A stretch of DNA of 64,000 bases from NCBI GenBank assembly GCA_040766535.1, contig JAXGQG010000008.1, positions 411 through 64,410 on the forward strand, written 5' to 3'. Made by a program: the position numbers and the translations under genes. The stretch's first letter is position 1; the number at the start of each line of letters is the position of its first letter. The notes under the pieces are model-generated. The model ran no database searches. It saw only the letters and a list, made by a program, of their open reading frames with translations, and had not been told where the DNA came from. Shown here in pieces: positions 40,119 through 41,488 of this stretch. The DNA comes from Dehalococcoidia bacterium. GTDB lineage: Bacteria; Chloroflexota; Dehalococcoidia; GIF9; AB-539-J10.

Positions 40119-41488
40119 TCGCTTCTTGGCTTCCTGCATCAGCCAGGGTCGGAACCCCGGATGGGCGATCTGACTGCGGTCCATCGCCCTCTCACGAACA
40201 TTCTTGCCAGCGGTACGCGATGCCGTACTCGGTTACCACGTAGTTGACATCCCTGCGGTTCAAGGTGACGCTTGCCTTCCGAGATCGACGGGACGATCCC
40301 GGAAACCTCTCCGCCCGCGGCTTGCCGATGGTACGGCCAGAATCGTCTTGCCGTTTATGCGAGGAGCGCCGCGCATGAAACGTAGTGTCCGCCCACTCCG
40401 CTGCAGAACTGGCCTCGATGATTCTGACGTGTAGCCTGACTCTAGGTCGCGTCTATCTCCAGCGCACCGTTGATGGCCACCATGTTCTCTTGCTGCGCAA
40501 TGATGAGCGGGTTGTTGTAGTCAACTGGCGGAAATCGCCGGATTGTCGTCGAGCCCATACGTTTTCCTCCGACCCATGCAGAACGTGGCGACCGTCTTGC
40601 CGTTAGTCGATGGTCTTGCGCGTGTTGTCGACTGTCGCAAAAAAAAAAACATAACGTAAAAAAAAAAAAAAAAAAAAAAAAAAATCTTTTTCCTGCCTTC
40701 ATCAACTCGACGATGCCATCGCTCAGCAGCTGGTGTGCACGCCGAGGTGACGGCGCTCCGACAGGTTGACCATCACCGCGTTCGGGACGTTGCCGTAGCC
40801 GACCTGTGTCCCCATCCTGCACAAGCCTGGCTACATACCCGCCGAGCGCGGCAACAACCTCGCTATCCTCCTCCCCTACCCCGCGCCGGTATTCAAGCAA
40901 CGGCTCATCGAAGGGCATTATGTAATCTATATCACTCACGTGAATGAAGCTGTCCCCATGGACGCGCGGCATGAACCGGTTCGGTTGCGCGATCACGATT
41001 GCCGCCATGTCGGTAGCCGCCTTCACCATGTCCACGCTCACTCCCAGACTCATGTAGCCATGCCGGTCTGGTAGCGACACCTGGATCAGCGCAACGTCGA
41101 TCTTGATGATACCCCGCTTGAACAGCCGCGGTATCTGCGACAGCGACACCGGGCTGTAGTCCGCAACTCCCCGGTTGACCGCATTCCGCGTACTGTCCCC
41201 GAGAAAGAACGAGTTGTGCCGGAAATTCCGCTTGAACTTGTCGTCGGCGTAGGGTGCGAGACCCAACGACCACAGATGCAGGACTTCGGCGTCGAAGAAC
41301 CCTTTGGGGTGCGACTCAACGTACTCGATCAGCGACTGAACAAGATACTGCGGCTCGCCGCACCCCGACGCAATGAAGATGACGTCGCCGCGGTGGATAT
41401 GACTGAACACGCGGTTCACGGAGGCGAACTTATCCGGGTACGCCGCCCGCAGTTCCTCCAGGATTATCGAGGCTTCCTCTTGTTGCAT
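40119..41488 (-). pseudogene. acetyl-CoA hydrolase/transferase-family (4-hydroxybutyrate/succinyl-CoA:acetate CoA-transferase-like) gene disrupted by an A/T homopolymer insertion and frameshifts
   Basis: Intact N-domain (MQQEEASIILEELRAAYPDKF..SGCGEPQ..). After ..LLSDGIVELMKAGKR the reading runs through poly-F (a T-run on this strand). C-domain segments (GKTVATFCMG, PVDYNNPLIIAQQENMVAINGALEID, DL.SG.TSES, VNYVVTEYGIA) lie in shifted frames. Confidence 0.75.
40639..40684. repeat. homopolymeric A tract: A11-CATAACGT-A27
   Basis: Read directly: 11 A (40639-40649), CATAACGT, then 27 A (40658-40684). It lies inside the CoA-transferase coding sequence, in a window that is otherwise about 63-65% GC. 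Confidence 0.95.

Follow-up and report, generated by a model that had tools for sequence, protein, structure and literature searches.

Does a run of 27 adenines in the middle of a protein-coding gene belong to the genome of the organism, or was it created on the way from DNA to deposited contig? The question is raised by a tract in a 64-kb stretch of a Dehalococcoidia MAG; this whole stretch, the DNA analysed here, is referred to below as the window. The original prediction noted an A11 run, an A27 run and a TC-TTTTT tail within a CoA-transferase gene and offered three causes: an insertion of retroelement-derived or non-templated poly(A), a slipped-strand expansion of an ancestral run of Lys codons, and a read-end or assembly artefact. 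Our analysis strongly supports the last of these and speaks against the other two. The A11/A27 tract is almost certainly a technical artefact in an unpolished long-read patch and no feature of the organism.

The tract and its host gene

Direct reading of the window gives A11-CATAACGT-A27-TC-T5 on the plus strand at 40639-40691, as had been described. The parts of the tract, the inserted block that contains them and the gene in which they lie are as follows.

40639-40649, plus strand: A11 run, from a homopolymer scan
40650-40657, plus strand: the 8-mer CATAACGT, between A11 and A27
40658-40684, plus strand: A27 run, from the homopolymer scan
40685-40686 and 40687-40691, plus strand: TC, then T5, read from the window sequence
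40633-40691, strand not given: inserted block, judged spurious; net +55 nt relative to the short-read contig L072 (see below), and 59 of 59 orthologues gapless
39547-41488, minus strand: acetyl-CoA hydrolase/transferase-GNAT fusion gene, ~640 aa when intact, with PF02550/PF13336 and orthologues in the related loci L002, L006 and L023

The two runs are the only homopolymers longer than six nucleotides in the 64 kb; elsewhere, A runs of length 4 occur 17 times, of length 5 once and of length 6 twice. With an A frequency near 0.2, our own arithmetic puts the expected number of A runs of at least 11 in 64 kb at ~1e-3, and that of runs of at least 27 at effectively zero. Because no other homopolymer in the window exceeds six, A11 and A27 cannot be put down to chance, and their description as an extreme compositional outlier is borne out. 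The genome G+C content quoted with that description, 64%, was too high for the window, which measures 59.8%. A/T runs in 628 kb of related loci reach at most 9, and tRNA and Rfam scans returned nothing at the tract site.

In a Pfam search, the N-terminal part of the minus-strand host gene matches PF02550 (E = 1.4e-47), which confirms that the tract lies in a CoA-transferase gene. PF13336 is weak in the broken ORF and clear in the intact orthologues, where it is found together with GNAT domains. On this domain content, an N-terminal PF02550 and a C-terminal PF13336, the gene belongs to the acetyl-CoA hydrolase/transferase family. Its codons 1 to ~214-228 are clean, and the remainder carries 11-12 frameshifts in addition to the inserted block; the intact orthologues in L002, L006 and L023 have 640-667 aa. 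The called ORF of 348 aa translates the tract as KRFFFFFFFFFTLCFFF (in its wider context, ...ELMKAGKRFFFFFFFFFTLCFFF...), and the native sequence (ATVDNTRKTID...) resumes after the tract in another frame, so that the poly-Phe read-through claimed originally is indeed seen. This artefactual 348-aa product (window 40442-41488, minus strand), with its FFFFFFFFF-TLC-FFF, is already present in public protein collections as P0001, a singleton cluster with NCBI as its source. The fused CoA-transferase gene, compared alone, also occurs in loci labelled Bipolaricaulota, Syntrophales, Thermotogae and Desulfobacterota.

Syntenic loci were found in Dehalococcoidia MAGs, both among reference genomes (L001/L008, L002, L003, L004 and L006) and in metagenomes (L023-L025). 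They share the order DUF2520, ilvD, MgtC, CoA-transferase fused to GNAT (640-667 aa), ADP-forming acetyl-CoA synthetase (~710 aa), a 345-aa DRTGG protein, an RtcB-like gene on the opposite strand, and threonyl-tRNA synthetase (ThrRS). Within this order, the CoA-transferase-GNAT, ADP-forming acetyl-CoA synthetase and DRTGG genes make up a conserved cluster adjoining MgtC and ilvD, seen in the window at 36438-41488 and in L002, L006 and L023. At the tract site the relatives read ELMK-x-G-[V/A/I]-[I/V]-DN, and none of the 59 orthologous segments from the fetched loci has a gap there. The block is placed between ...ELMKAG and TVDNTRK, and no native codon is missing by comparison with the relatives. 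By these alignments the tract is a pure insertion, the host gene being otherwise collinear across it. The original prediction had placed a Lys triplet in the conserved motif at this site. The native motif is ELMKAGVVDNTRK, which has no Lys run, and the suggested comparison with orthologues showed that none of the 59, and not L072 either, has a run of Lys codons or of A where the insertion lies.

An intact copy in a short-read assembly

Among reference genomes and JGI metagenomes, scans found relatives with at most 90% amino-acid identity and no conspecific. Two conspecific contigs were obtained from the Logan short-read assembly of run SRR27370447. One, L072 (7,262 nt), was found via an identical 285-aa DUF2520 neighbour protein; the other, L073 (2.8 kb), was found via an exact match to the IF3 protein. 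A literature search for the run accession SRR27370447 returned no papers.

Over window positions 40692-47001, L072 is 99.75% identical to the window, and beyond 40847 the two differ by 6 substitutions and 0 indels in 6,154 nt (99.9%). L073 matches window positions 31426-34247 at 99.86%, again with no indels. Over 39712-40632 the identity to L072 falls to 92%: this stretch of 921 nt contains 39-40 substitutions, 16 deletion events and 6 insertion events, that is, 4.3% substitutions, 1.7% deletion events and 0.65% insertion events, or ~6.7% in total. At the tract itself L072 reads GTTGTCGAC-CACA-CCCGCCTTC, with 4 nt in place of the 59 nt of the window, where the block on the plus strand is TGTCGC-A11-CATAACGT-A27-TC-T5. 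A base-level alignment resolves the difference into three insertions: 5 nt at 40633, 10 nt at 40639 and 40 nt at 40652. The coding strand of L072 at this point reads MKAGVVDNT, as in the family consensus, and its CoA-transferase gene is an uninterrupted ORF of 583 codons up to the contig end. The tract is thus missing from the short-read assembly, and therefore, in effect, reads do not support it, the very observation that the original prediction had named as evidence against a genomic tract.

Further errors of raw-read type against L072 lie to the right of the tract, at 40694, 40731, 40805 and 40840-40847, so that the degraded sequence reaches 156 nt past the tract, to 40847. These errors bear on the possibility that the block marks a chimeric or adapter-derived join of unrelated molecules, or is Illumina read-through poly-A that stood at the end of a contig and was carried over into the assembly by merging. 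Poly-A following adapter read-through is a known short-read artefact, and only ~156 nt do separate the block from the right-hand boundary of the low-quality patch. A join of this kind is nevertheless very unlikely: the block is flanked on its two sides by perfectly collinear gene sequence, with native bases neither lost nor duplicated, and the raw-read-type errors continue on either side. A k-mer screen of the block for adapters and primers (ONT, PacBio, Illumina, 454 and SMART) likewise yielded no adapter k-mers of at least 8 nt, the only hits being trivial T runs.

Within the patch, L072 breaks off at window position 39710, and the contigs recovered from this run are short (7.3 and 2.8 kb). 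Such fragmentation may reflect low short-read coverage of the organism, which could explain why a long read was used as a bridge here and why polishing failed.

Extent and error spectrum of the degraded patch

The tract is not an isolated lesion. It sits in a 5.7-kb block with ~75 frameshifts, the features of which, together with its flanks, are listed here.

35146-40847, strand not given: degraded patch of raw-read quality, ~5.7 kb, ~75 frameshifts, four genes
37466-39606, minus strand: ADP-forming acetyl-CoA synthetase gene, 34-35 frameshifts, 1 in-frame stop
36438-37460, minus strand: DRTGG-domain protein gene, 10 frameshifts, 1 in-frame stop
34770-36247, plus strand: putative RtcB-like gene, read from motifs; first ~125 codons clean, then 18-19 frameshifts; holds the left patch edge
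32363-34087, minus strand: threonyl-tRNA synthetase, clean left flank, 0 frameshifts; 99.86% to L073, no indels
40848-47001, strand not given: clean right flank, 6 substitutions and 0 indels against L072 in 6154 nt

Frameshifts were located with our own protein-to-DNA dynamic-programming aligner, which has explicit frameshift states, using L002 proteins and then L023 as templates. The right edge of the patch (40847) was measured against L072, and the left edge (~35146) is inferred from relatives only. L072 spans just the rightmost 1.1 kb of the patch, and the other 4.5 kb were judged from orthologues at 70-84% amino-acid identity. Both edges fall inside genes. Outside the patch, 0 frameshifts were found in ThrRS, IF3, MgtC, ilvD (with the L023 template) and codons 1-228 of the CoA-transferase gene. 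If the clean part of each edge gene had been hit at that gene's own frameshift rate, the probability of finding no frameshift there would be ~0.002 per gene. In DNA comparisons with relatives there are 10-23 frame-shifting gaps per 500 nt in the patch as against 0-2 in the flanking genes, and within the patch deletions outnumber insertions by ~1.7 to 1. In-frame stops number only 3 in the whole patch, and the in-frame amino-acid identity to L023 is 70-83%. The ORF map shows the same boundaries in coarser form, with long ORFs collapsing over ~34.1-40.8 kb and the remaining window densely coding; other, shorter ORF-poor stretches of the window hold small genes and tRNAs. An intact tRNA-Val was detected just outside the patch in the tRNA and Rfam scans.

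Natural variation between strains would concentrate at third codon positions. The 40 substitutions that separate the patch from L072 are distributed over the codon positions as 15:14:11, 30 of them are non-synonymous, and transitions exceed transversions 31:9 (3.4:1). When two clean relatives were compared at the same codons, the patch showed ~0.06-0.11 extra differences per site, at each of the three codon positions, riding on an unchanged divergence dominated by third positions. The excess persists away from indel sites and so is not an artefact of the aligner. The extra differences in the patch are blind to selection. Around the tract, the errors ignore both codon position and gene boundaries, and they include 22 small indel events in 921 nt.

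Neutral decay would be blind to selection too, and a codon-position test against relatives alone cannot separate it from sequencing noise. One might then suppose that the operon is really pseudogenised, with its CoA-transferase, acetyl-CoA synthetase, DRTGG and RtcB-like genes decaying and the A-rich block a real insertion or slippage product in dead DNA; many disabling mutations spread over four adjacent genes are what such decay would look like. The matter is settled by the conspecific contig and by patch edges that lie inside genes. Since the flanks differ by only 0.1% from the conspecific contigs, real neutral decay is excluded as the source of the ~6.7% differences in the patch: a block decaying ~60x faster than its surroundings is impossible. 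The supposed decay would also have to start and stop inside genes, leaving ~214-228 CoA-transferase codons and the first ~125 RtcB-like codons untouched, and the conspecific contig carries the intact gene. Indel events are, moreover, about half as frequent as substitutions (22 vs 40), a ratio far above what is known of natural bacterial pseudogenes. We regard genuine pseudogenisation as highly improbable.

Origin of the tract and its effect on annotation

The technical reading rests on a sharply bounded patch of raw errors and on the absence of the feature from an independent assembly of the same population, whose flank is 99.9% identical. The error spectrum of the patch matches the published profile of raw nanopore reads, for which an overall error of 5.7% is reported, rising to ~8% for high-GC reads and consisting mainly of deletions, with transitions ~3x as frequent as transversions (PMC8486125). 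The corresponding values in the patch are 6.7% events, deletions to insertions 16:6 and transitions to transversions 31:9. The same paper describes occasional overcalling of short homopolymers, by one to two orders of magnitude, as well as long insertions in some of the reads (PMC8486125); the single A's of CACA that became A11 and A27 resemble such overcalls. Raw nanopore errors are usually lost in the consensus, unlike here, where they were kept in the deposited contig, and the effective support over the 5.7 kb must therefore have been roughly 1x.

The interval 35146-40847 has, on this evidence, the accuracy of one uncorrected long read. Such a raw stretch probably served as a bridge or filler between segments with good support and was never polished. 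The 55-nt, mostly-A block would then have arisen in the raw sequence, at a site whose true reading is GTCGAC-CACA-CCCGCC. It may have been produced in basecalling, if a stalled or mis-segmented signal was called as a grossly over-long homopolymer, or by a consensus or polishing tool that wrote A/T homopolymers without read support. Either basecalling or polishing is the software step that we infer to have made the A runs. That the platform was nanopore is suggested by the match of the error spectrum, which is no proof of platform.

The second route has a precedent. When nanopore assemblies of Drechmeria coniospora were polished with Racon and Medaka, these tools are reported to have introduced stretches of A or T homopolymer that no reads supported, close to discontinuities in coverage (bioRxiv 10.1101/866020 / PMC7500977). 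As at our locus, extraneous low-complexity sequence, mostly A or T, was added there to collinear DNA near a discontinuity in support and was accompanied by local single-nucleotide errors. The Drechmeria case differs in being a fungal isolate in which the added stretches had a mean length of 15 nt and lay near numts or a 10-kb gap, whereas here 55 nt were added in a bacterial MAG.

Three observations count against the artefact model. A test for homopolymer contraction of the 454, Ion or nanopore type found runs of at least 3 nt only weakly depleted in the patch (0.86x, P=0.03), so that the classic deletion signature lacks strength; the block contained no recognisable adapter or primer sequence; and short reads evidently exist for part of the patch, yet it was left uncorrected. 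What doubt remains concerns only the precise technical mechanism and a small chance that the bridging molecule truly carried the insertion. The single molecule behind the patch would then have borne a 55-nt A-rich insertion that was faithfully read, while the dominant short-read population lacked it; such an insertion would be a rare somatic or population variant, or a product of DNA damage or repair in one Dehalococcoidia cell. We consider this most improbable.

A hyper-expanded contingency tract, grown from an ancestral run of Lys codons by slipped-strand mispairing and phase-variable, merits hardly any credence. A frame-shifting homopolymer within a coding region does recall the phase-variable tracts of host-adapted bacteria, a likeness that is only superficial. 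Those tracts have an ancestral tract and an intact gene to switch. Here neither L072 (CACA) nor any of the 59 orthologues has an A or Lys-codon run at the insertion point, and with at least 11 further frameshifts downstream in the gene the length of the tract could not switch expression. The structure is also composite, two runs split by a unique 8-mer and followed by TC-T5, which is no simple expansion; it is absent from L072; and no other run longer than six occurs in the window. An insertion of retroelement-derived or non-templated poly(A) into the genome would account for an A-rich insert with all flanking native sequence kept, and is just as close to negligible, since there is no target-site duplication (the flanks share no k-mer longer than 5 nt), neither an element body nor a reverse-transcriptase ORF lies nearby, only 55 nt are inserted, the 8-mer core is unique in the window, and L072 has no insert. 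Bacteria are not known to carry out poly(A)-tailed retrotransposition.

Read as a technical artefact, the tract is without biological significance, and its value is that of a quality flag for the MAG. The patch makes four false pseudogenes: the CoA-transferase/GNAT fusion, the ADP-forming acetyl-CoA synthetase, the DRTGG protein and the RtcB-like gene. Any annotation of the MAG would show the last three as pseudogenes or as many small ORFs, and the false pseudogenes would wrongly drop genes of acetate and acetyl-CoA metabolism from a metabolic reconstruction. That indel errors make apparent pseudogenes, and that these can be detected via reference proteins, is also described for long-read (meta)genome assemblies in the proovframe (bioRxiv 10.1101/2021.08.23.457338) and Kastor (PMC12007338) reports. 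In those assemblies such errors are spread genome-wide, in contrast to the one sharply bounded patch in an otherwise accurate contig reported here. Other deposited MAGs could be screened for patches of this kind by looking, in high-GC genomes, for regions where an extreme homopolymer coincides with a local collapse in ORF length that starts and stops within genes.

A different lesion was noticed in the same gene of a relative. At positions 4684-4686 of L001, which is the contig of L008 (GCA_030603265.1, JAUVYD010000041.1), the CoA-transferase/GNAT gene is interrupted by an in-frame TGA (HL*VHTE) at a codon that specifies Gly in 57 other orthologues, and hence it is annotated as two genes (249 and 385 aa). 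Coverage of the contig is only 6x, so the TGA could be an error in the base call or else a genuine nonsense mutation.

Contigs from other samples also match the window. In the IF3/L35/ThrRS region (~30.8-33.0 kb), L074 (ENA ERZ27257442) and L076 (Logan SRR29900443) are 96.5% and 98.7% identical to it, respectively, with substitutions only; close relatives of the organism therefore occur in several public datasets.
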